The notes beneath the pieces are model-generated. The model was not told the origin of the DNA, made no database searches, and saw only the letters and a program-made list of their open reading frames with translations. Source: an uncultured Anaerolineales bacterium (GTDB taxonomy: Bacteria > Chloroflexota > Anaerolineae > CG2-30-64-16). Taken from it: a stretch of 33,133 bases of DNA. The stretch lies in NCBI GenBank assembly GCA_964647225.1, contig CAZYHE010000002.1, positions 1,655 to 34,787 on the forward strand, read 5' to 3'. This document shows, one piece after another, positions 10,619 to 27,522 of the stretch. Made by a program: the position numbers and the translations under genes. The first letter of the stretch is position 1. The number at the start of each line of letters is the position of its first letter.

Positions 10619-11818
10619 CTATTCAGAGCTGCGTATTTCATCCACGGCTTCCACCATCGCCGCGAAGTTCTCGGGCGGGATCGGCGGGTTGATCTCGCTG
10701 GACGTGTCTATGAAGATGCCGCCGCGCTGGAGGGCGTCCGGCTCCCGGATGATGCGGTGGACCTCGTGGCGCACCTGTTCGGGCGTGCCGCGCTCCATCA
10801 GATCCACGCCGTCCACCCCGCCGGCCCAGGTGTGCTGAGGCCACGCCCGGCGCAGCGCGACGATGTCCATCCCCAGCGCCGGCTCCAGGCAATAGAAGCC
10901 GTCCACCCCGCAAGCGACCAGGTCGGGGATCACCTGCTGCCAGTTCCCATCGCTGTGGTAAAGCACCTTCAGCCCGTAGTCGTGCCAGGCCGCGGTCAGG
11001 CGGCGCACGTGCGGGAACAGCTCGCGGCGCAGGAATGCCGGGCTGAAGATCGGCCCGCCCTTCGACGCAAAATCCTCCGCGATCAGCACCACGGGCGTGA
11101 GCGCCGGGTCGGCGATGGCGTGCAGCCGGGCAAGCTCGCAGTCGGTGTAAGCGCCGATGTAGCCGGAGATGACTTCCGGCCAGGCGTCATACAGATAGAT
11201 GAAGGTGTCCAGCCCCAGCCGATACCAGCACTCACAGAACCCAGTCTGGATCGAGAAGTCCACGATGACCGTCTCGCCGATCAGCTTCTGCAGGCCGGTC
11301 ATGTAGCGCCGGTAGTTCTCGCGCTCCTGATCGGCGTCGAAGCTCGCCTGTGCCTCGCGCGCAACCGGGACGATGCCCGGCGGGTAGCCGTAGCCGCCGC
11401 GACGGCCCAACCGCCGCATCCGTTCGGTCTTGCGCAACAGGAAGTCACGCGCACCCGCCAGGTCAGCGAACGGCCGGCGGACGATCATCGAGTGCCAGTT
11501 GTCCTGCTGGATCAGGAAGCCGTCGGCGTCCACGATCTGGCGGACGCCCAACGGCGCGACGGGCGGGAAGCAGGCATCCAGCGTCCGGCGGATGGTCGCG
11601 CAGATGTCCGCGTAGCTGTAGTCGAAGTCGCGGATCCTCTTGCCGGTGTAGCGGGCGATGACGCCGGGATTGTAGCTCAACTGCTCGTGGAGCACGGCGC
11701 GATCCACCGGCTGGTTTGCCAGCGTCCGCTCGACGCGCGCGCGTTTCGAGAGGCGATCGGCCGGAAAGAGCTTCTCGAATGACCCGTCCTGAGCGCAGTC
11801 GAAGGAATCACCGCTCAT
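10619..11818 (-). CDS. Uroporphyrinogen decarboxylase (URO-D)/MtaA-like TIM-barrel family protein, function unknown
   Basis: ORF 10619..12049 trimmed to ATG 11818, which overlaps the GH42 stop as ATGA. The C-terminal half GLKVLYHSDGNWQQVIPDLVACGVDGFYCLEP...GTPEQVRHEV resembles URO-D_like proteins. The N-terminal tail carries a family-A repeat copy (SFDCAQDGS). Confidence 0.6.
   Translation of the reverse strand: MSGDSFDCAQDGSFEKLFPADRLSKRARVERTLANQPVDRAVLHEQLSYNPGVIARYTGKRIRDFDYSYADICATIRRTLDACFPPVAPLGVRQIVDADGFLIQQDNWHSMIVRRPFADLAGARDFLLRKTERMRRLGRRGGYGYPPGIVPVAREAQASFDADQERENYRRYMTGLQKLIGETVIVDFSIQTGFCECWYRLGLDTFIYLYDAWPEVISGYIGAYTDCELARLHAIADPALTPVVLIAEDFASKGGPIFSPAFLRRELFPHVRRLTAAWHDYGLKVLYHSDGNWQQVIPDLVACGVDGFYCLEPALGMDIVALRRAWPQHTWAGGVDGVDLMERGTPEQVRHEVHRIIREPDALQRGGIFIDTSSEINPPIPPENFAAMVEAVDEIRSSE
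11786..11805. repeat. Family-A repeat copy (CTGAGC-N-GTCGAAGG unit) inside the URO-D-like gene
   Basis: GTCCTGAGCGCAGTCGAAGG, translated on the minus strand as SFDCAQDG. Confidence 0.7.
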
Positions 11819-14130
11819 CGTTCCACCACCAGCGCGGCCACATCCAGGCTCTTGACCGTGAGCACGACCTGATCCCCACGCCGCTCGAACGGCTCGCCAA
11901 GCAGGCCCCGGACCTCCCGATAGCCCGCCACATCCACCGACTCGCTGATCTTCTCCGGCGTGGGGTTCGTGAAGAGCCAGGCTTCCCGGTCTCCAGCGAT
12001 CCGCTTGCGTAGGAGCAGCCGACCGGTGTGTTCCGGCAGCACACCGCACTCAGCCAGCAGCACCCGCACCGCCGCCCGCGTTTCTGCATCCCGGTACGCC
12101 GTGCCGTTGTGCCCGACGTAGGTGCCCAGGAGCCAGGCCCGGCCCTTGCCCGCCCACCGAACTGTGCCGGCAGTCGTGGACGCCACGACGGCATCGCCAT
12201 GGCGCAGCAGCGGCTCACAGCCGTCCCCTCCGCGCCCTGAGCCTGTCGAAGGGCCTGCGCTCGGCGAAGGATCGAAAGTCTGGAGGTAAACATTCGCCCG
12301 TATCCGGTGTCCGGCCAGCGGCCCCGCGCCCTCCAGCATGATCGCATCCACGTATTCGCCCCAGGTACGCTCCGGCGGCGACCAGCGCGGCAGGCTGCCC
12401 GGCTCGCGCACCATCGTAAAGCTGCGCTGCGTGACCCCGAACAGGTCGGCCAGGGTTGGCGACAACTCGCCCCGGCGGCAGAAGCCGTGCTCGTCAATGC
12501 GGCCCGGCGCGGCCTCGCTAATCAGGTTGCCGCCGGCCTCGACGTAGCGCGCCAACTCACGCGCTACCTCCTCGGACAGGCTCAGTGGGAAGGGCAGGAT
12601 CAATGCCCGGTAGTCGCCGACGTGCGCTTCGTCCAGTTGGGAGGCTTCGACGAAATCAACCGGGATATTCAGCTCCCACAGCAGCCGATACCACCCGCGC
12701 ACGCTGTAGGCCAGGTGCTCGTGGCCCTGCGCCATCAGTTGGGTGAGCTGGTAGTTCCACTCATCAACCAGGATCGCGACCTGCGCCCAGGGCCGCGTGG
12801 GTTGGCCGAACAGGTCGGGATATTGGTTCAGCGCGTTCCCGATCCGAGCGGCCTCCGCATAGCGCGGGGCGCTGTCGCCCGCGCTGTCCAGCAGGCTGAA
12901 GCCGTTCGCCTCGGCCACGTGGATCTCGGCGCGCGTCACCCAGAACGAAAGCGCGGTGATCCCCGCGCCGACCGCGGTCAGCATCCACCGGCGCATGTCG
13001 GCGGGATCGGGCACGCGGCCCTTGTGGAAGCCGGTGCTCACCGGCCCGCCCTGGAATTCGGCCGCCCAGACCGGGTTTCCCCCCTTCGACGTGCCCTTCG
13101 ATAAGCTCAGGGTGCTGCTCAGGGCGGCGCGGCGGTTGCACGAGCGGATATAGTCGAAGCGCAGCGCCACACCGTCGGCCAACTCGGCCAGGAGGCACGC
13201 GTGGCGCGGCAGCGGTTCGCCAGCCGCAGGGCGGCCGTCGTCCCAGGGCTGGAGCGAGTTCCACGCGGGGTAGCACGATGAGCCGAGGAAATCCTGGCAG
13301 CGGGCATAGGTCCAGTCCTGCCCCGCGCCAATGATGGGCGCGCCCTTGTGCGCAAAGACCGGCCGGCCGAGCGGGTCCGCCTCCCGGATGGCTCCGGCGC
13401 GGGCGCGCAGCACATTGGCGATCTGGACGTTGTCCATGAAGTAGTGCCAGTCAATGTTCCCCGGCTGCGGGTAGCGCACCATCGCCAGCCGGTCGGGCGT
13501 CACCGACTCCCAGTCGCCATAGCGGGTGTTCCAGGCCCGGTTCAGCCCCTCCAGGTCGCCGTAGCGCGCCCGCAGCCACGCCCGGAACGCGGCGAGCGTG
13601 TTCGCGCAATAGCAGACGGGCTGGCCGGCGAACCGCTCGGCCCAGTAGCCGATCTCCTGCCAGGTGTTCCAGCAAACGATGTTCTCGAAGCGGCCCAACG
13701 TCCGCACCAGTTCCCGGATGAAGCGCAGTTGGTCCGCCAGCGCGCCCGGATCGTCGAAGCAGGGGCCGGGCTTGCCGTCGGCCGGGAGGGTGGTCTGCGC
13801 CTCGTAGGCGATGGGCAGGCCGTTGCGGCCGACCATCCGGCAGCCGGGATGCTTGCGCCACAGCCAGGGGGGCGCCTGCTCGCACGTCAGCCCCAGGTAG
13901 ATGCCCAGGTCGAGCCGGGCGGCGTGCTCGATGAGTTCCTCATAGCGCGAGAAGTCGTAGCGTCCTTCCACCGGCTCGTCAATGGCCCAGTGCTCCTGGA
14001 GCTTGATCAGGTTGAAGCCGTGGCGCTTGAGGTTTTCCATGTCCCGCTTGAGTTCGGACATGGGCGGCATTGGCTCGCGGCACAGGTGCGAGCCGATGGG
14101 AAAAAGCTCACCGAAACGTTCGACGTTCAT
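11815..14130 (-). CDS. GH42 beta-galactosidase
   Basis: ORF 11815..14175 trimmed to ATG 14130 (ATGA overlap with the upstream stop). Motifs: KRDMENLKRHGFNLIKL, WAIDEPVEGRYDF, CWNTWQEIGYW. A trimerisation-type middle region and a C-terminal domain are present. Carries two family-A repeat copies. Confidence 0.85.
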   Translation of the reverse strand: MNVERFGELFPIGSHLCREPMPPMSELKRDMENLKRHGFNLIKLQEHWAIDEPVEGRYDFSRYEELIEHAARLDLGIYLGLTCEQAPPWLWRKHPGCRMVGRNGLPIAYEAQTTLPADGKPGPCFDDPGALADQLRFIRELVRTLGRFENIVCWNTWQEIGYWAERFAGQPVCYCANTLAAFRAWLRARYGDLEGLNRAWNTRYGDWESVTPDRLAMVRYPQPGNIDWHYFMDNVQIANVLRARAGAIREADPLGRPVFAHKGAPIIGAGQDWTYARCQDFLGSSCYPAWNSLQPWDDGRPAAGEPLPRHACLLAELADGVALRFDYIRSCNRRAALSSTLSLSKGTSKGGNPVWAAEFQGGPVSTGFHKGRVPDPADMRRWMLTAVGAGITALSFWVTRAEIHVAEANGFSLLDSAGDSAPRYAEAARIGNALNQYPDLFGQPTRPWAQVAILVDEWNYQLTQLMAQGHEHLAYSVRGWYRLLWELNIPVDFVEASQLDEAHVGDYRALILPFPLSLSEEVARELARYVEAGGNLISEAAPGRIDEHGFCRRGELSPTLADLFGVTQRSFTMVREPGSLPRWSPPERTWGEYVDAIMLEGAGPLAGHRIRANVYLQTFDPSPSAGPSTGSGRGGDGCEPLLRHGDAVVASTTAGTVRWAGKGRAWLLGTYVGHNGTAYRDAETRAAVRVLLAECGVLPEHTGRLLLRKRIAGDREAWLFTNPTPEKISESVDVAGYREVRGLLGEPFERRGDQVVLTVKSLDVAALVVER
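12234..12270. repeat. Family-A repeat copy plus a degenerate second unit inside GH42
   Basis: GCCCTGAGCCTGTCGAAGGGC followed by CTGCGCTCGGCGAAGG, translated as ...SAGPSTGSGRG. Confidence 0.65.
13082..13125. repeat. Family-A repeat copy in opposite orientation, with both halves duplicated, inside GH42
   Basis: CCCTTCGAC gtg CCCTTCGATAAGCTCAGGG tgctGCTCAGGGC, translated as ALSSTLSLSKGTSKGG just upstream of the AAEFQGG segment. Confidence 0.7.
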
Positions 14131-15502: not shown

Positions 15503-16843
15503 TTAACAACCGACCATCCCCGCCAAATCAGCCAGCGGCTGCCGCAGGTCGCCGTATGCCGCCATCCAATGGTGGCCCAACCCCTCGCGGGCGATCCAGC
15601 CGAAGATCGCCCGGTAGTCTTCCCGGAACCGCACGCGCAGCGGATTGCCAGGAAAGACCATCTCGGTGGCGATGGCCTCGCCGTGCAGGGCGGCCATGCG
15701 ATAGCCGTTCAGACCCGGCACGATGTTGAGCAGCGTCACCGGGCCGGGGCGGGCGGGGAAGAGGCAGCACAGGCCGCGATCCATCAAGCGCACCGGCCCC
15801 AATGTGATCTCTGCCGGGTTTGCGGCCAGGGAGAAGCCGCCGGAGCCGCAATGCGAGAAGACGATGGCGTTCTCGGCCGGGATCGGATCCAGGAGGTCGG
15901 TGTTGTGCACCGGCTGGCCGGTCAGCCTTGTCAGCAGCAACATGCCGAGCGCCGCGTTGATGTCCCCTTCGCACGCCACCGGGATCCCCGCCTCCCCCAA
16001 CAGCGACGCGGCCAGGCAGACCTCGCCCATCAGGTGCGGGTAACAGCCGATGGACACCGCCGAAAGGCCCAGTTCCGCGACCGTGGCGCGCAGGGCATGG
16101 GCCACCTGCAGCGACGCGATGCCGGCATCCGCCGTCGCCGTCACCCGGCCGACCTGCCCGCCGAGCGCCTGCCAATCGGACGCCAGCGGGAGCACGTCCA
16201 CCTGCGCGGCCCGCTCCAGGAAGACTTTCGTGTCCAGCCCGACCACGCGCGGCCCGAAGGTGCGTTTGAGCGCCAGCTCGTGGACGGTGGTCTCGGTCAT
16301 CCCCTCGACGCGATGGCCCAGGTGGCCGATGCGCGCCCGCCGGAGTTGGCGCGCCAGGCTCGCCGCGGCGGCGAACTCCCGCGCCCGCCGCAACCCGGTC
16401 GCTGAGCCTGTCGAAGCGTCAACCAGCCCTTCGACAAGCTCAGGGCGCGGTTCATCGAACAGGAAAACGTAGGGCCGGCCAAGCTGCTTGAGCATGAAAC
16501 ACAACTGCTGCATCCCGCACAGCGCGCCGGTCTCCATGCCGGGACGCGCCCAGGCGACGACTGGGACGGGGCACTCTTCCAGCAGATCGAGCACCAGGTA
16601 ATCCTCGAACCAGGACGCGGCGATGGCGATCACGGCGTCAACGCGCTGGTCGTAGAACGCGCGGCCCGCGGCCACGGCCGCGTCCGGGGTGGTCACAACC
16701 ATGCAGCCGGCGATCTCGATCGGCGGCGAGCCTGGGGCGCGGAACGCCACTTCCAGGCGCGCCAGCAGCGCCGGCGCGTCCCCCGCGCCCACTTCCAGCG
16801 GGCTGGCAACGGCGATCAGGCCGAGACGGATGGGTTGGGACAT
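15503..16843 (-). CDS. L-fucose/L-arabinose isomerase-like sugar isomerase family protein
   Basis: ATG 16843 with AGGAG 6 nt upstream. Motifs: SIGCYPHLMG, PVACEGDINAALGMLLL, FSHCGSGG and a C-terminal domain typical of FucI/AraA-like isomerases. Contains a complete hairpin copy of the family-A repeat. Confidence 0.65.
   Translation of the reverse strand: MSQPIRLGLIAVASPLEVGAGDAPALLARLEVAFRAPGSPPIEIAGCMVVTTPDAAVAAGRAFYDQRVDAVIAIAASWFEDYLVLDLLEECPVPVVAWARPGMETGALCGMQQLCFMLKQLGRPYVFLFDEPRPELVEGLVDASTGSATGLRRAREFAAAASLARQLRRARIGHLGHRVEGMTETTVHELALKRTFGPRVVGLDTKVFLERAAQVDVLPLASDWQALGGQVGRVTATADAGIASLQVAHALRATVAELGLSAVSIGCYPHLMGEVCLAASLLGEAGIPVACEGDINAALGMLLLTRLTGQPVHNTDLLDPIPAENAIVFSHCGSGGFSLAANPAEITLGPVRLMDRGLCCLFPARPGPVTLLNIVPGLNGYRMAALHGEAIATEMVFPGNPLRVRFREDYRAIFGWIAREGLGHHWMAAYGDLRQPLADLAGMVGC
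16401..16446. repeat. Complete family-A element (both orientations, hairpin-forming) inside the isomerase gene
   Basis: GCTGAGCCTGTCGAAGcg tcaaccag cCCTTCGACAAGCTCAGGGC. The arms are complementary with one mismatch. Translated as PELVEGLVDASTGSA. Confidence 0.75.
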
Positions 16844-21300: not shown

Positions 21301-24300
21301 CTACGCACTTGGGCTTCCGCAGGTCGCCAGCAGACCGGTAGCAGGAAACCGCCGCGCCCCGCGACAGCGCACCGTCGTCAGCCCGTGGGCCGCGAGGGAC
21401 GCCTCGAAGGTGTGTGGCGTGCAAGGCAGCCGCGCCTGGTCTTCTTCCACCAGGTTAGTCTGCCACGCCTCGCCGATGTCGAAGTATGGCAGGCGCACGA
21501 TCGCCCGCAGATCCTCGCCCGCGGTCTCGGCCAGACGCAGGATGAGGCCGTCCCCATCCTCCGCGGCCTTCAACGTGAGCAGCACGACGCCGGGCGCGTC
21601 CACGCCGCAAAATGTATCGGATGCCGGCAGCGGGCCGTCCTGTGGGCCGATCACGTAGGCGGTCACGGGGCAGACGGCCGCCTCCCAGCCGAGGGCGCGC
21701 GACCGGGCGCGCTCGTGCTGGCCGTCGTGCGTGGTGATCGCGTAGCGGAAGAGCGCATCGGTCGCCTGCACGGGCTGGAAGTTGGTGCGGAAGTTGTTGT
21801 TCATCACATAGGAGTAGATGTGCCCGTGCCGCAGTTCCTCGGGGGCGCGCAGGAACGCGTGCCCATAGCCGGGCGGGGTGACGCCGTGGTGGGCTTGCGA
21901 GACGTAGCCGGGCCACAGGCCGCCCAGTTCAACGATGGGCGCTTCGAGGCTGCTCCACGCGACCCCGCCGGCCCGGTCGTGCATGCTCACCCAGTGCTGG
22001 ACGGCGTAGGCGTCGGTGTTGGTGCCCGGCAACTGGTCGCGGATCGGCTCGATCACCGCGTTGCTGGCCTCGTAGGCGAAATGGGGATCGTCAAGGGCGA
22101 AGGGGAAGGCCAGGTGCAGTTCGAGCAGCGGCGTGGCATCGCGCAGGATGCGCGTCGCCAGCTCGATCCGCTTCACCCCCTCGAAGAGCGTGATCTCCTG
22201 GGTGATCTGCGGGCAGCCGTGCGCGCTGCTGCGCACGATTAGGCTCGCCGCCACCGGCCCCGCGCTGCCGCGGCGCAGAGCGACGGCGCCAGTGAGGGGA
22301 TCGCCTCTGATGCTTGACTCCTGCCCCCTGACTCCTGCATCCTGACCCCTGGCCCCTGGTGGCTCAACGCCCGTGCGCGGATCGCGGACCACCAGTTGGT
22401 TGAACGGGTGCGGCGCGTGGGCGTCCACCCACTCCCGGCCAAGCTCCTTGTCGAAAATGCTGCGGATCGCACCGGTGGCCGGATCGAGCGCGACCCGGTA
22501 GAAGCGGTTCTCCAGCCAATCCTCGCCGATCCGCAGGCTGCTCGCGAACTCGGGCCAGCGGTCGCAGGGCTTGTCCTGAGCACCGCCGAAGGGCTTGTCC
22601 TGAGCAGTGTCGCAGGGCTTGCCCTGAGCGCCGTCGCAGGGCTTGTCCTGAGCAGTGTCGAAGGGCCGGAGGCGGTAGGCGCGATAGCCGAGCGGTGGGA
22701 GGTCATGGGCCAGGAAAACAAGCTCGCACAGATGGCTCCGCTGGTAGTTGAGCGCGGGATGGCTGTGGGCGTCGGTGTGGCCGAGCGCGTAGTGCTGCGC
22801 GGCCCAGGGTTGCGCAGCCAGCGGGTCGTCCAGGATGTTGACCTGGCACGGGACGACCGCGCCGGTCGCCACGTCTACCAGTTCGACTTGTCCTGAGCAC
22901 CGCCGAAGGGAGGGACGCTCCAACAGCTCGGCCGGCAGGCTGACCCACGGCCGGCCGAGGATCGAGCTGGACACGCGCTGCGCGGGCGCGCCGGGCTGGC
23001 TGCCCGGCCGCCAGTAGAACGGCCGGCTGGCCGGCTCGGCCGCGCTGGCGCGCGCCCGTACGATGGCGTCGCGCGGCCAGTTCAGCGGGTTGAAGACGAC
23101 CAGGTGATAGCCGTCATCTGGCAGCCGGACCTGGTCGGCGATGCGGTGGGCGCTCTTGGTGAGGACATCGTGCGCCAGGGCCGCGCCGCGATAGGCAAGC
23201 TCGCCCTTCTGGCTCCAGCACGCATCCTGGGCCGGCCCGATCGGTTGGGCCATGCCCCAGGTGTGCTCGTCGTAGAGCAGCGCGCAGTCGTAGGCTTCGG
23301 CCAGCGTATCGGCCGGATAGATATAGTCGCTAACCGAAGCGGCGCATGCAGCCAGCTTCTCGGCCGAGCCGAGCAGGTCGTGGGTCAGGCGGTTGACGCC
23401 GGTCTCGCGGGGCGTGCTGATCGCGCCGACCGTGTAGTCGGTGTTCGGGAGGTCGCCGCGCAGCACGGGCAGGCGGTCGCCGGCGGCCCGCTCGAATTGC
23501 TCGAAGAACGCCGTGTTGGTGGAGACGATCAGCCGGGGATAGGCCCAGCGGTCGTTCCATTCGCAGGCGATCCGGCTGAGCCGGACGTCCGGCGGCGCGT
23601 TGTCGCGGTTGGCACCGTGGAACTTCACCCGAACCAGGTCGTGCGGATAGCCGCCCTCGGTCAGCCCGGCGAGGTAGCGCGCGAGGTTGGTCTCGGCCTG
23701 GTCGCAGGTCCACAGCCCCGGCCCGCTGATGGTGCCGCCCGCATACCAGAAGAGCACCCGCTGCCCGTCCGGCCCTTCCCACCAGAACGCGCCGGGCAGC
23801 TTGCGCGGCAGGATCGCCTGCTCGTCCCAGTGCGGATGTACGGTCATGCCCCAGGCGAAGTAGTCGGGGATGCCCGCCGCGAAGTAGCGCACGCCGGCGC
23901 CGGCCAGCACGCTCGCCAGCCCCCAGGAGACACCGGGGATGTCGTTCAGTTCGGCGGAGCGGATGGGGACACCGAAGCGCCGGGCAAGAGCGAACGCGGG
24001 ATAGAGCAGCCGCACCTGCTCCTCGTGCCCGCACAGTTCGCTCGTCTCGTTGCCCAGCAGGGCGGTCAGCTCGATGCGCCCCGCGCGCAGCCAGCGCGCC
24101 AACCGCTCGACGGTCTCAGGCGGCCGGTGTTGGACGTAATGCTGCACCGACCACGCCTGCTCGATCACATAGCGGAAGCGGGCTTCCTCCGGCCAGTCGG
24201 CCGTCTCGTCGCAGCCATCCAGGACGGCATCCAGAAAGGTGTCGTGCTCGCGTAGAACGTTGCTGGGCAGGTCGGTGTAGCCCAGGTCGTGGTGCGAGCC

Positions 24301-24645
24301 ATGCACCAGGTGGACCTGCCACCGCCGCGTGGGCTGCCAGGCCAGTTCCAGCCGGTCGAGCAGCGTCTCCCCGGCCAGGAGACTGAACGTCACGGGGCCG
24401 CTTTCGGCGATTGCGGGGATGAAGACGCGCTGGCGGTTGACGCCCGCGGCGACCGGATCCAGGCGCACCTCCATGCGCTGGCCGGCGAAGGTCACAACCA
24501 CCGCCAGCGTGTCGGCTCCGCGCTCGCAGGAGAGGGTGATGTCCACGGCTTGCTGGAGGCCCGTATTTGTCTGCCGGAAAAACGGCGTCGGCTGGACGGC
24601 GGTCAGGCGACACGCCAGCCGGCCTGCTGGGTCAAGATCATTCAT
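21301..24645 (-). CDS. GH38 alpha-mannosidase family protein
   Basis: ATG 24645 with GGGAGGG upstream. It has a GH38 N-terminal metal-site motif VHLVHGSHHDLGYTD, then LGNETSELCGHEE, and long middle and C-terminal domains. Carries a 24-bp tandem array, a lone 24-mer and a heptamer array. Confidence 0.85.
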   Translation of the reverse strand: MNDLDPAGRLACRLTAVQPTPFFRQTNTGLQQAVDITLSCERGADTLAVVVTFAGQRMEVRLDPVAAGVNRQRVFIPAIAESGPVTFSLLAGETLLDRLELAWQPTRRWQVHLVHGSHHDLGYTDLPSNVLREHDTFLDAVLDGCDETADWPEEARFRYVIEQAWSVQHYVQHRPPETVERLARWLRAGRIELTALLGNETSELCGHEEQVRLLYPAFALARRFGVPIRSAELNDIPGVSWGLASVLAGAGVRYFAAGIPDYFAWGMTVHPHWDEQAILPRKLPGAFWWEGPDGQRVLFWYAGGTISGPGLWTCDQAETNLARYLAGLTEGGYPHDLVRVKFHGANRDNAPPDVRLSRIACEWNDRWAYPRLIVSTNTAFFEQFERAAGDRLPVLRGDLPNTDYTVGAISTPRETGVNRLTHDLLGSAEKLAACAASVSDYIYPADTLAEAYDCALLYDEHTWGMAQPIGPAQDACWSQKGELAYRGAALAHDVLTKSAHRIADQVRLPDDGYHLVVFNPLNWPRDAIVRARASAAEPASRPFYWRPGSQPGAPAQRVSSSILGRPWVSLPAELLERPSLRRCSGQVELVDVATGAVVPCQVNILDDPLAAQPWAAQHYALGHTDAHSHPALNYQRSHLCELVFLAHDLPPLGYRAYRLRPFDTAQDKPCDGAQGKPCDTAQDKPFGGAQDKPCDRWPEFASSLRIGEDWLENRFYRVALDPATGAIRSIFDKELGREWVDAHAPHPFNQLVVRDPRTGVEPPGARGQDAGVRGQESSIRGDPLTGAVALRRGSAGPVAASLIVRSSAHGCPQITQEITLFEGVKRIELATRILRDATPLLELHLAFPFALDDPHFAYEASNAVIEPIRDQLPGTNTDAYAVQHWVSMHDRAGGVAWSSLEAPIVELGGLWPGYVSQAHHGVTPPGYGHAFLRAPEELRHGHIYSYVMNNNFRTNFQPVQATDALFRYAITTHDGQHERARSRALGWEAAVCPVTAYVIGPQDGPLPASDTFCGVDAPGVVLLTLKAAEDGDGLILRLAETAGEDLRAIVRLPYFDIGEAWQTNLVEEDQARLPCTPHTFEASLAAHGLTTVRCRGARRFPATGLLATCGSPSA
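22315..22356. repeat. Heptanucleotide tandem array (6 units, TGNNYCC) inside GH38
   Basis: TGACTCC TGCCCCC TGACTCC TGCATCC TGACCCC TGGCCCC, translated as GARGQDAGVRGQES (7-aa periodicity). Confidence 0.75.
22561..22666. repeat. Tandem array of 4.4 family-A 24-bp units inside GH38
   Basis: Units: GTCGCAGGGCTTGTCCTGAGCACC / GCCGAAGGGCTTGTCCTGAGCAGT / GTCGCAGGGCTTGCCCTGAGCGCC / GTCGCAGGGCTTGTCCTGAGCAGT / GTCGAAGGGC. Translated as PFDTAQDKPCDGAQGKPCDTAQDKPFGGAQDKPCD. Confidence 0.85.
22887..22910. repeat. Lone family-A 24-mer inside GH38, identical to 22570-22593 but read in another frame
   Basis: CTTGTCCTGAGCACCGCCGAAGGG is identical at both sites. Here it is translated SLRRCSGQ; in the array it reads PFGGAQDK. 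Confidence 0.85.
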
Positions 24646-24687: not shown

Positions 24688-27522
24688 TCACTGACCCGCC
24701 GGGCCAATGCGCCACGATGCCTCAAGCGCCGCGGCCGGGTTCCCCGTCGCGTCCAGGAAGAGATAATCGGTTGGGTCGTCCGGCCGATAGAAGAAAACCT
24801 CGAACCTGTACTTGTCCTGAGCACCATCGAAGGGCCGGCCCGCCGCCGGGGGCACGCGCAGCGTGTGCGTAGTCGTGATGGTCGCCGCACCCTGCCAGTC
24901 GCGCACCAGGTCGCGGCCGCCGCTGAGCGCCCGGTCGTCCTGCGCCGCCATCTGCCCGGCCGCGTCGAGGAGGCGGGCGCTGATGCTGTAGTCGCTCGCG
25001 GGCCGGTCGAGCAGCCGCCAGGGGAGGGTGACGGTGACGGTCTGGCCCCCCGCGACCGCAAGCTCGGCGGTTTCCACTCCAGTTGCAAAGATCATGGCGA
25101 GACCCGTCGTTTGGGTCAAAGCAATCTCGCCCGCCGCGGCCTGAATCGCCAACAACTCCGTCTCATTCATCGCCGCGGTTACCGCCACCTCCTGCACGAA
25201 GGGCGGCGCGGCCACCCGCGCATCATCGGCCGCCAACCGCAGCCGCTGCGCGTGCGCGCCGCCGGCCGGCGGTCGGGGCAGATCGAGGGGGATCACGCTC
25301 CCCGCGTCCACCAGCAGCGGCAGGCGGACGCGCACCTCGAACGACTGGCCGGACGCGCCCCCGGCTGCTTGCCACGCGCCCCGCACGCGCAGCGGCAGCC
25401 CCGGCGGGATCATGATCTCACGCCCACCCGGCGCGGCCAGAAGCAGAAAGGCCTGACCGTCGGCGGTACTCCAAAAACGGCCGGCCACGGGGCCGATGTT
25501 CGGTGACGCCGGCGGCAGCCGATAAACCCATTCCGGGCCAAACTCCCGTTCGAGACGGACGCCGGACATCCCTCGCGTAGCGAACACATCTCGCAGCGCG
25601 GCCGCCCGCCCCGGCGCAAACGCCTCCATCACCGCGCTGTGGACGATCACCCGCTCGACCCCCAGCCCTCCCAGCAGCGCCAACGAGCGCGCGTCCGGGA
25701 AATGCGCCAGCGTCAGCCCCAACTCGCGATGGTGCGGCGGCACGAAGCCGCTGTAACCGTCGGCGGTCGGCTGCCAGTGGCCGGTCTGGAAGTATTGGTA
25801 GCGCAGCAGGTTGTAGTCGGGCCAGGCGAGCGACGACGCTTCGGCAAACCCGACATTCGCTAAGCCTGTCGAAGCGCCCGCCAAGGGCCGCGGCAGCGAC
25901 GCCATTTCCGATGTCAGCGGCAGCTCGATGATCGTCGTGGCTGGCTGCTCCGCCAGCCACGCGTAGAGCGGCGCGGTCGCCTGCCGGGCGGGCGGCATCG
26001 GCTGGACGGCGAAGCGGCCCAGCCCGCCCGCATACTCAGCCAGGATCAGCAGCGCCAGGGCGGCCGTCACAATGTAACGCAATCTGCCAGCTTGCCCGTC
26101 TCCCCGCCGCAATCTAGCAGATTGCGTTACAACGGTGCGCGCGCCCAGCGCCGCCAGCATTGCCAGCGCCAGGAAGGCCGAATTGGCAAAACGCCCCGGC
26201 GCGCGGATGGCGGTCATGCCGGGCACATGCTCATAAAGCCAGCCGAACGGTAGCGCCAGCCCGCCGGGATCCGCCGCGGTGAGCTTCAATTGCGGGCCGA
26301 GCGACAGAATGACCGCGGTCAGCACCAGCAGGAACCAAAAGCCGCGCCCCAGCCCGGTCTGGGGCCGGCTGCGCCGGATCAGCAGTCCCAGTGCGGCCAA
26401 CCCCAGGACGACTACCCCCGGAAACAGCCCGCCCTCAGCCGACGCCCCCCCCGGCAGCGCCCGGTAGAACGGGTTGGCGACGGGCGGCCGCACCCATTCC
26501 GCCAGCGTGGCCGCGTTGCGCAACGTCTCTCCGATCGAACGCTCCAGCCCCAGCTCGCTCCGCACGCGCAAGTAGGGCGCGGCGAATGGCGCGATCAGCA
26601 CGGCGGCCAGCGCGATCCACGGCAGCATGGCGATGAGACGATGTACAATGTAAGATGTACGATGTAGGATGTACGATGTAGGATGTACGATGTAGGATGT
26701 ACGATGTGTGGCCGATGGCTGATTCCTGCCCCCTGCCCCCTGCCCCCTGCCTCCTGACTCCTGACTCCTGCTCACCACCCGCGCCCCCACGTACAACCCC
26801 ACCGCCAACGCGACCTGAAAGCCATAATAGAACGCCGAGAGGGTCTGGAAGGCTGCGCACAGGGCAAAGAGGAAGCCATCCCGCGGCCGGCCGCGCGTCC
26901 AGAAGCGATCCAAGAAGAGCAACGTCAGCGGCAGCCAGGCGATGCTCAGCAGTTGGAGTTGGCTCAGGTGGCCGAACTGATGGGGCGAGAAGGCATAGAT
27001 CAGGCCCGCGAGGCACGCCGGAAGCCGGTGGCTCGTCATCCGCAGCGCCAGCAGGTATGCGCCGAGGCCCGCCAGCGGGAAGGCCGCCAGGAAAAAGAGG
27101 TTGTAGACAAGCACCGGGTTGTCGGTAGCGGCCAACAGCGGCACGGTGAGCGGCGAAATCGGCCAGAGGATCTCGGAGAAGGCCAGCGCGTTCGGCAGGG
27201 GATGGAAGATCGGCGCGTCGAACAGCGCCCACGGCGCGCGCGGGAGAATATGCGCCTGCCAGGCGATGATCCAGGTGTTGAGCGCCGTATCCGAGCGGTC
27301 GTGCAGGCCCGCGCCGAGCTTGGGGAGGAGCGGCGCAAAGAGCAGGAGGGTCAGAGCGATGTAGGTCAGGAATGCCGGGAGCGATCCGCAGATGAGCGCA
27401 GATGGACGCGAAAACAGGCGGCCGGCATGGCCCGGTATCCGGCTTGCTGCTGGTTTTGTGGTATCATCGTGTCGCAACACAACACCTATCCATGAGGTCA
27501 AACCCAATGCCAACCCCATCAC
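24688..27522 (-). CDS. Large polytopic membrane protein (about 11 TM segments plus a ~430-aa C-terminal soluble domain); GT-C-like glycosyltransferase candidate
   Basis: Hydrophobic segments run throughout the first ~500 aa. There is an acidic first loop (GLHDRSDTALNTW), and the C-terminal domain contains GYSGFVPPHH. The start is uncertain: ATG 27522 would overlap the divergent phosphodiesterase start. Heptamer arrays are embedded at 26641-26768. Confidence 0.5.
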   Translation of the reverse strand: MMGLALGLTSWIGVVLRHDDTTKPAASRIPGHAGRLFSRPSALICGSLPAFLTYIALTLLLFAPLLPKLGAGLHDRSDTALNTWIIAWQAHILPRAPWALFDAPIFHPLPNALAFSEILWPISPLTVPLLAATDNPVLVYNLFFLAAFPLAGLGAYLLALRMTSHRLPACLAGLIYAFSPHQFGHLSQLQLLSIAWLPLTLLFLDRFWTRGRPRDGFLFALCAAFQTLSAFYYGFQVALAVGLYVGARVVSRSQESGGRGQGAGGRNQPSATHRTSYIVHPTSYILHRTSYIVHRLIAMLPWIALAAVLIAPFAAPYLRVRSELGLERSIGETLRNAATLAEWVRPPVANPFYRALPGGASAEGGLFPGVVVLGLAALGLLIRRSRPQTGLGRGFWFLLVLTAVILSLGPQLKLTAADPGGLALPFGWLYEHVPGMTAIRAPGRFANSAFLALAMLAALGARTVVTQSARLRRGDGQAGRLRYIVTAALALLILAEYAGGLGRFAVQPMPPARQATAPLYAWLAEQPATTIIELPLTSEMASLPRPLAGASTGLANVGFAEASSLAWPDYNLLRYQYFQTGHWQPTADGYSGFVPPHHRELGLTLAHFPDARSLALLGGLGVERVIVHSAVMEAFAPGRAAALRDVFATRGMSGVRLEREFGPEWVYRLPPASPNIGPVAGRFWSTADGQAFLLLAAPGGREIMIPPGLPLRVRGAWQAAGGASGQSFEVRVRLPLLVDAGSVIPLDLPRPPAGGAHAQRLRLAADDARVAAPPFVQEVAVTAAMNETELLAIQAAAGEIALTQTTGLAMIFATGVETAELAVAGGQTVTVTLPWRLLDRPASDYSISARLLDAAGQMAAQDDRALSGGRDLVRDWQGAATITTTHTLRVPPAAGRPFDGAQDKYRFEVFFYRPDDPTDYLFLDATGNPAAALEASWRIGPAGQ
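24811..24835. repeat. Family-A repeat copy inside the membrane-protein gene (C-terminal domain)
   Basis: CTTGTCCTGAGCACCATCGAAGGGC, two mismatches from the GH38 unit. Translated as PFDGAQDK. Confidence 0.75.
25859..25877. repeat. Family-A half-unit inside the membrane-protein gene
   Basis: GCTAAGCCTGTCGAAGCGC, one mismatch from the left arm at 16401-16418. Translated as GASTGLA. Confidence 0.55.
26641..26710. repeat. Heptanucleotide tandem array (10 units, ATGTASG) inside the membrane-protein gene
   Basis: ATGTACA ATGTAAG then (ATGTACG ATGTAGG) x3, ATGTACG, ATGTGTG. Translated as HRTSYIVHPTSYILHRTSYIVH. AT-rich against the GC-rich background. Confidence 0.85.
26720..26768. repeat. Heptanucleotide tandem array (7 units, TGNNYCC) inside the membrane-protein gene, 9 nt from the ATGTASG array
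   Basis: TGATTCC TGCCCCC TGCCCCC TGCCCCC TGCCTCC TGACTCC TGACTCC, the same unit family as 22315-22356. Translated as SQESGGRGQGAGGRNQ. Confidence 0.85.

Follow-up and report, generated by a model that had tools for sequence, protein, structure and literature searches.

Bacterial genomes commonly contain very small dispersed repeats, and where they originate and how they move is a long-standing question. To our knowledge, there is almost no case of an element below ~30 nt for which the donor, the target, the empty site and the product have all been seen. Here we describe a 24-nt module that occurs both as a head-to-tail array and as an exact solitary copy within a gene encoding a GH38-family glycoside hydrolase, on a stretch of 33,133 nt from an uncultured Anaerolineales bacterium of the phylum Chloroflexota (contig CAZYHE010000002.1 of assembly GCA_964647225.1; the whole stretch is referred to as the window). 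By analogy, the small dispersed repeats (SDRs) of heterocyst-forming Nostocaceae and the repetitive extragenic palindromes (REPs) found inside genes appear to be its closest relatives in kind. Elhai et al. reportedly outlined the SDRs in 2008 as dispersed, mobile elements of 21-27 nt, much shorter than any transposon, that are sometimes tandem or nested, and these repeats are said to show insertion polymorphism between related genomes, to have no known enzyme and to co-occur with heptanucleotide tandem repeats. Likened by these outlines, the module is a dispersed 24-nt unit with empty and filled sites in different genomes, nested and tandem forms, and heptamer repeats nearby. SDR1-8 are treated in two papers that cite the original work (PMC5861425, PMC3116915), the first of which states that SDR-like repeats were found in no genome outside Nostocaceae (PMC5861425). 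On that account the module differs from SDRs, which are restricted to Nostocaceae, in belonging to a family present in Chloroflexota and, among the matches listed, in more than ten phyla, and in that most of its copies in the window appear to be in frame inside genes.

Intragenic REPs are palindromes tagged with GTAG or CGTC that lie inside known genes, singly or grouped, where they add between a few and 30 residues and are presumed to be tolerated because the loops concerned are flexible; those with a CGTC tag come without a dedicated transposase (Di Nocera et al. 2013, PMC3733652). The 24-nt module resembles them as a short intragenic repeat that is probably tolerated in loops, and resembles the CGTC class in that no dedicated transposase was found for it. 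In contrast, REPs are stem-loops with a terminal tag and are mainly extragenic, whereas the 24-nt unit has neither hairpin nor tag, is arrayed head to tail at a period of exactly 24 nt, does not track the genes for REP-associated tyrosine transposases (RAYTs), and lies inside open reading frames (ORFs) in all three copies studied. A further parallel is offered by the Rickettsia palindromic elements, which Ogata et al. are said to have described in 2000 as selfish DNA within protein-coding genes. Like these, the module sits in frame in unrelated genes, at surface positions, and does not destroy the protein; the Rickettsia elements, however, are reportedly palindromes of 100-150 bp confined to one genus, and the module is 24 nt long, non-palindromic and found across phyla. 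It is also unlike a miniature inverted-repeat transposable element, as its ends (CCCTTCG and CARG) are not inverted copies of each other and it has no target-site duplication. With in-frame variable-number tandem repeats, or coding minisatellites, it shares a unit length divisible by three, a head-to-tail arrangement, one to four copies among relatives and mosaic units, but such repeats grow from local sequence, whereas the 24-nt unit came from outside, is present at unlinked loci and can seed new solitary copies.

The host gene occupies positions 21301-24645 of the window on the minus strand as an intact ORF of 1114 aa carrying the Pfam domains Glyco_hydro_38N, Glyco_hydro_38C and Glyco_hydro_38C2, in agreement with an earlier note on this DNA that had placed a repeat array between GH38 regions. 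Tandem Repeats Finder recovered the array that this note had described, at 22561-22666 with a period of 24 nt, 4.4 copies and a score of 142, along with an alternative solution of period 48 (2.2 copies, 91% match). In the coding sense, four full units on the minus strand at 22570-22665, namely U1 (CCCTTCGACACTGCTCAGGACAAG, 22642-22665), U2 (CCCTGCGACGGCGCTCAGGGCAAG, 22618-22641), U3 (CCCTGCGACACTGCTCAGGACAAG, 22594-22617) and U4 (CCCTTCGGCGGTGCTCAGGACAAG, 22570-22593), are followed by the tail CCCTGCGAC, and the translation reads PFDTAQDK PCDGAQGK PCDTAQDK PFGGAQDK PCD. The 24-mer CTTGTCCTGAGCACCGCCGAAGGG occurs at 22570-22593 and again, letter for letter, at 22887-22910, both times within the 1114-aa ORF. 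This recurrence had also been noted, and no such match arose in 100 dinucleotide-preserving shuffles (expected number 0.00). The second copy, hereafter the solitary copy, is identical to U4 and lies 293 nt upstream of it on the same (minus) strand, where it splits a conserved Phe codon (T/TC). Translation of the ORF confirmed that it is read one base out of phase with the array, as SLRRCSGQ, and the conserved Phe becomes Val.

We then compared this gene with five related contigs, obtained by protein search and one metagenome scan, that represent three lineages with 86-93% nucleotide identity to the window. The closest, L001, is 93% identical over 2100 nt with a synonymous divergence (dS) of 0.17; L004 is 86% identical, as are L002, L003 and L005, which belong to one population. 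At the position of the solitary copy, all five relatives have an empty site that encodes R P F E, written CGC CCC TTC GAG in four of them and CGC CCG TTC GAG in L001, where the window has CGT CCC T-CCCTTCGGCGGTGCTCAGGACAAG-TC GAA. As the site is empty in the relatives and filled in the window, the solitary copy is a clean and recent 24-nt DNA insertion. Its boundaries are unambiguous, since a shift of one base either way spoils the match, and its eight residues are missing from all 12 of the more distant orthologues that were aligned. On neither strand was a target-site duplication or microhomology found at the junctions. The target CCCT^TCGA looks like the beginning of a unit, and the insert lies 4 nt off the register that homology would have guided, an offset that puts the solitary copy in another frame and changes Phe to Val. 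Among 328 units, the arrangement CCCT-unit-TCGA was seen at this site only. The window also carries two substitutions of its own, 5 nt to either side of the insert.

The array site presented a ladder of copy numbers, with one unit in L004 (PFDGAQDK, then PCDRWPE), two in L002 and L003, three in L001 and four in the window, in frame in every case. The remark in the earlier note that units of 24 bp preserve the reading frame whatever their number held throughout. The units are mosaic between the window and L001, with unit 2 of L001 combining the 5' part of the window's U1 with the 3' end of U2, as unequal exchange between units would yield. Copy number has been altered on every branch, and the founder unit is common to lineages separated by a dS of 0.4-0.5, which indicates that the founder is old. 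The earlier note had argued for recent duplication or insertion at the DNA level; this interpretation is supported, with the refinement that only the solitary copy and the changes in copy number are recent, and not the founding unit of the array. The array ends in the tail CCCTGCGACCGCTGG (PCDRW; 22555-22569, minus strand), which resembles the start of a unit and stands behind the final unit in L001, in L004 and in the window itself; L002 has CCCTTCGACGCATGG instead. Part of the site that the founder originally entered is probably preserved in this tail. In the alignment of GH38 orthologues, those of up to 65% identity have no array unit, and two of them have an unrelated insert in the same loop.

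Two more copies of the module could be bounded by comparison with empty sites. The first is located in the gene upstream of the GH38 gene, which encodes a polytopic membrane protein of 944 aa (24688-27522, minus strand) with weak Pfam matches to YfhO and PTPS_related and two heptamer arrays. Here, the sequence CCCTTCGATGGTGCTCAGGACAAG (24811-24834, minus strand), which has two mismatches to the 24-mer, forms an insert of eight codons, PFDGAQDK, near the C-terminus. It is present in the window and in L211 (~90% amino acid identity) and missing from P0125/L212 (78%) and seven more orthologues, where the empty site reads GGC CGG^TAC ACG and the insert is CCCTTCGAYGGTGCTCAGGACAAG, with a boundary ambiguity of 1 nt. 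The copy in L211 matches the single GH38 unit of L004 at 24/24 positions. The second was found on another contig of the window's assembly (C319:5409-5432), where a copy with one mismatch to the 24-mer lies in a gamma-glutamyltransferase (GGT) gene; its 24-nt boundaries are unambiguous (TAT CAC^CCCTTCGGCGTTGCTCAGGACAAG^GGC), and the insert is missing from 25 of 31 orthologues. Strictly local hopping was ruled out by this copy. All three bounded inserts share the ends CCCT...CARG to within 1 nt, and the chance of the same register in three events is roughly (1/24)^2. Three events with the same ends point to a discrete module with fixed ends and not to a product of slippage. None of the three junctions (CCCT^TCGA, CGG^TAC and CAC^GGC) is accompanied by a target duplication.

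The GGT site has features of its own. The module is found at one identical codon boundary in six lineages (77-97% identical; loci L224-L228 and C319) that are interleaved with the 25 empty orthologues, and the GGT tree needs five gains or losses, at least two of which are forced by well-supported branches. No flanking direct repeat able to drive a precise deletion was present at this site. Read from the tree, the patchy distribution may reflect recurrent insertion, precise excision or recombination, and is a hint that precise departure of the module from a site may be possible. The C319 gene carries, about 100 nt downstream of the first insert, a second repeat-derived insert of 14 residues (GPSSFDCRSGCSGRG), a unit with a duplicated right half, which is present in three relatives, shortened in one and missing in the rest.

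The module is not confined to these genes. The consensus of the family is 5'-CCCTTCGRC-NNN-GCTCAGGRCARG-3', with two conserved halves around a free 3-nt centre, and when K is allowed at position 5 it is fitted by the four array units, the solitary copy and the copy in the neighbouring gene. In the window's own assembly, a fragmented bin of 4.95 Mb in 756 contigs, the core TTCGRC-NNN-GCTCAGG is present in 33 copies, including two-unit tandems on two other contigs. Across 31 related genomes, the pattern CCYTTCGRCNNNGCTCAGGRCA was detected in 12, with up to 52 copies, and the reversed pattern, used as a control, was found in none. A stringent two-unit tandem pattern matched more than 117 stretches among contigs sampled at one genome per species, and the matches listed include Acidobacteriota, Methylomirabilota, Chloroflexota, Omnitrophota, Verrucomicrobiota and Bacteroidota, as well as Alpha-, Beta-, Gamma- and Deltaproteobacteria, a cyanobacterium, an archaeal metagenome-assembled genome (MAG) and others. 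These arrays hold two to seven units and have sharp ends, CCCT on the left and CARG, usually followed by one C, on the right. Neighbouring units have an identical centre triplet in 94 of 169 pairs, and 34 different centres occur between arrays. No open frame of 120 codons covers ten of the 79 arrays, and the remainder are crossed by the longest frame in five phases; with five frames or none, the 24-nt period is a property of the DNA element and not of translation. On these distributions, the unit did not originate in the GH38 gene but belongs to a dispersed family that spans phyla. Among named sequences, the host genes had their best homologues in MAGs of Anaerolineae and Chloroflexota, which suggests an Anaerolineae-like member of Chloroflexota. 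No Rfam family matched the window or six other unit-bearing loci in E-value mode, and a text search of a literature library returned no paper containing the DNA of the unit or its peptide readings. Two viral contigs matched the unit; in the one that was examined, the genes between units are ordinary phage genes.

The alignments show that a single module came into a permissive surface loop of the GH38 protein in an ancestor of the window's lineage, and that in the window's own lineage an exact copy of U4 was pasted 293 nt upstream, with blunt junctions, into a site that had been empty. Taken together, we consider it probable that the array and the solitary 24-mer both consist of copies of one discrete, non-autonomous 24-nt micro-element, from a family that is by nature non-coding, which is spread by end-specific copy-and-paste and whose arrays subsequently change in length. 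Under this model, array units would have been gained and lost by unequal recombination or slippage between units, and both copying and pasting would be carried out by a process that recognizes the ends. Copies within genes would survive only where eight extra residues fall in a disordered loop, as passengers and not as functional peptides. More tentatively, and with some doubt on our part, the module would be an end-defined copy-and-paste mobile element that uses a route taken by no known transposon, and the smallest, found across phyla, with empty-site proof. Such a route could involve rolling-circle copying, with single strands of unit length set free at a nick site, or, alternatively, a processed RNA of unit length that serves as template for new DNA at breaks.

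Several observations weigh against this interpretation. It is based on empty and filled sites, the movement itself was not seen, and three bounded insertion events are a small sample. Both a hairpin and terminal inverted repeats of useful length are missing from the module, which thus has none of the handles of known transposons, and a comparison of four insertion sites gave no target consensus. Among the 31 genomes, none of the candidate enzymes searched for (Y1_Tnp/RAYT, IS91-type Y2_Tnp and the reverse transcriptase domain RVT_1) tracks the copy number of the unit. Y1_Tnp is found in 23 of the 31 irrespective of unit count, and RVT_1 in eight of nine genomes with at least four copies and also in 11 of 22 without, figures that are uncorrected for kinship; a genome with 38 unit copies and 87% completeness has no Y1_Tnp, Y2_Tnp or RVT_1. 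Clustering of the ORFs at 117 array loci identified no gene that recurs beside arrays other than two-component-system genes and repeat-derived ORFs. Finally, the donor is merely 293 nt away on the same strand, and an accident of repair or replication would give the same product.

Such an accident is the main alternative. In a generic templated insertion, a nascent strand would, during replication or break repair, have jumped to the nearby array, copied one of its units and then returned, with no dedicated machinery, and the conservation of the family would have a separate cause. The proximity of the identical donor U4 and the unit-like target CCCT^TCGA fit this account, as do the copy in the neighbouring gene only ~2.2 kb away, whose version in L211 is identical to the ancestral GH38 unit, and the close unit pairs, 48-376 nt apart, that occur in related genomes. 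However, neither junction shows microhomology on either strand, the insert is displaced by 4 nt from the homology register, and the copy with one mismatch resides on another contig in an unrelated gene. Neither slippage nor template switching gives a reason for one register to be used three times, so the common ends of the three independent events count against both, and a consensus of 21 bases across phyla would be left unexplained. On balance, we regard templated insertion as unlikely. More improbable still is that the reads were simply mis-joined through the repeated 24-mer, an idea that we find barely credible: the bin is indeed fragmented and has visible scaffolding artefacts, but the exact protein is also encoded by two further contigs, assembled separately from runs SRR12261224 and SRR12261227, which match the window letter for letter over 5345 nt, with the array and the solitary copy among them, so that this is not an artefact of the genome bin. 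Moreover, the empty site and the array share words of 4 nt only, so that there is no k-mer path to the insert, and the insert is in frame within an intact gene.

A selected protein feature, in which the enzyme needs the 8-residue PFDxAQDK as a linker or binding motif and the second copy is a coincidence of codon usage, would account for an array that is in frame, free of stops and kept in four lineages, and for the unrelated insert that two distant orthologues have in the same loop. Against this, the identical letters at 22887-22910 are translated in a different frame, arrays elsewhere are crossed in five frames or none, the segments are predicted to be disordered, orthologues of up to 65% identity do without the array, and the sequence and number of units vary between near relatives, all of which make this highly improbable. 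We also judge it improbable, to a lesser degree, that the module is a hairpin element of the REP or REPIN type, mobilized as single-stranded DNA by a RAYT, an IS200-like Y1 transposase of the HUH type, with the direct-repeat array as an odd arrangement. Head-to-head hairpin pairs do occur in the family, for example at 16401-16446, the units of a Methyloversatilis MAG lie in the loops of GTAG-tagged hairpins, the window's genome has one Y1_Tnp gene, and intragenic REPs in loops are documented (PMC3733652). Yet the single unit and the array fold no better than shuffled sequences (z of +0.5 to +1.2), as was also the case for the solitary copy with its flanks, and the hairpin idea was ruled out for the direct-repeat forms on these grounds. 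There is no GTAG or CGTC tag and no conserved tetranucleotide at the insertion sites. The genome's own Y1_Tnp gene (contig C522) is not flanked by the unit, nor does Y1_Tnp track copy number, being absent from the 38-copy genome.

The fate of the inserts in the protein was assessed with an AlphaFold2 model built from 64 orthologues, which had a mean predicted local distance difference test score (pLDDT) of 90.6 and a predicted template modelling score of 0.91. Foldseek matched this model to the bacterial GH38 alpha-mannosidases 5kbp and 2wyi (E ~1e-37, TM 0.59-0.74), and a search of the PDB by sequence with the host protein gave no match; the Pfam domains and the predicted fold together assign the host gene to GH38. 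Purifying selection acts on the gene, as the ratio of nonsynonymous to synonymous substitution (dN/dS) was 0.20-0.24 against three relatives. Only three internal segments of the model had a pLDDT below 50, namely residues 578-584, 667-696 and 767-785, and these coincide with the solitary insert (residues 579-586), the array (residues 661-695, with the four full units at 661-692) and an insert derived from heptamers (residues 762-782), respectively. Given this coincidence and a dN/dS of 0.2, the repeat inserts look like tolerated passengers in surface loops of the predicted structure.

The third of these disordered inserts comprises 21 residues (PPGARGQDAGVRGQESSIRGD; 22300-22362, minus strand), was detected by Tandem Repeats Finder at 22315-22358 with a period of 7 or 14, and belongs to a repeat class distinct from the 24-nt module. 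It is common to L001 and L002 and missing in distant orthologues. L004 has a different insert at the same site, ETSFDAFGARS (GTCGAAACGTCCTTCGAC...), part of which is a small palindrome similar to the 24-nt unit in its left half, which indicates that this GH38 loop has been struck by different repeats. Heptamers also form the two arrays in the membrane-protein gene (26638-26771, minus strand), which were compared with those of the ~90% identical L211. The first array in L211 has equal length and place and is built throughout from another heptamer (CAGTTGT/CAGTCGT, against CAGGAGT/CAGGGGG in the window), and the second is shorter by three heptamers (21 nt, 7 residues) with the frame kept. From this comparison, the heptamer arrays look like cases of whole-array turnover and not of a frameshift switch.

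Further family members were read from the sequence of the window: CCTTCGACTGCGCTCAGGAC at 11786-11805 (minus strand), one unit plus a partial unit at 12234-12270 (minus strand), a short nested form at 13082-13125 (plus strand), in which a unit lies within the centre of another, antisense to its GH42 host gene, and the hairpin form at 16401-16446, in which two units face each other and no strand is assigned. In L214, from a related genome, the centre of one unit is likewise interrupted by an inserted second unit that has the same ends. Elsewhere in the window's genome, an intergenic composite element is present in three copies (C3:14950-15100, C36:300-450 and C197:2600-2750; loci L086-L088). 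It consists of a unit in a hairpin loop (GCGTCCAC...GTGGACGC) followed by a second hairpin (GTCGGCGCAGGCCGAC), both of which are enclosed by an outer stem (TCGCGGCTAAGGGGCG...CGCCCCTTCGCC), and it had no match in Rfam. Long forms of the unit (C4:25560-25600, C84:7180-7230 and C488:3050-3100; loci L089-L091) have a hairpin of 17-21 nt in place of the 3-nt centre, as in TTCGACTGCG-TCCCGCGAACTACAGCGGGA-CTCCGCTCAGG, where the hairpin is the middle part; that on C488 is followed by a run of TGACCCC/TGCCCCC heptamers. In the Methyloversatilis MAG (loci L102, L123, L134, L161 and L168), two-unit arrays occupy the loop of a GTAG-tagged hairpin (GTAGGCCGGAATAAG ... CTTATCCCGGCCTAC), so that in this betaproteobacterium the 24-nt module is nested in a classical REP-type element. 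The window's genome holds many other local repeats besides the 24-nt family, plus scaffolding artefacts. Among the latter are dozens of exact 55-nt direct repeats spaced 155 nt apart (55 nt and 100 N; for example C10:7926/8081 and C19:2061/2216), which are unmerged scaffolding overlaps and not biology.

As an example of the very small dispersed repeats, a class that is poorly understood, this case is particularly clean. The GH38 locus unites an identical donor 293 nt from its product, five empty relatives and a ladder of one to four units, to which two more insertions with the same ends can be added, and together with arrays in many phyla it makes the mechanism testable. For annotation, such modules add blocks of eight residues to ordinary enzymes and mark permissive loops, and they are a source of spurious low-complexity motifs in protein databases, for example PFDxAQDK, LRLRSGQA and SLRRCSGQ. 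On the more tentative reading given above, no smaller mobile DNA element would so far have been documented with proof from empty sites, and this one would have fixed ends, make no target duplication and form no hairpin.

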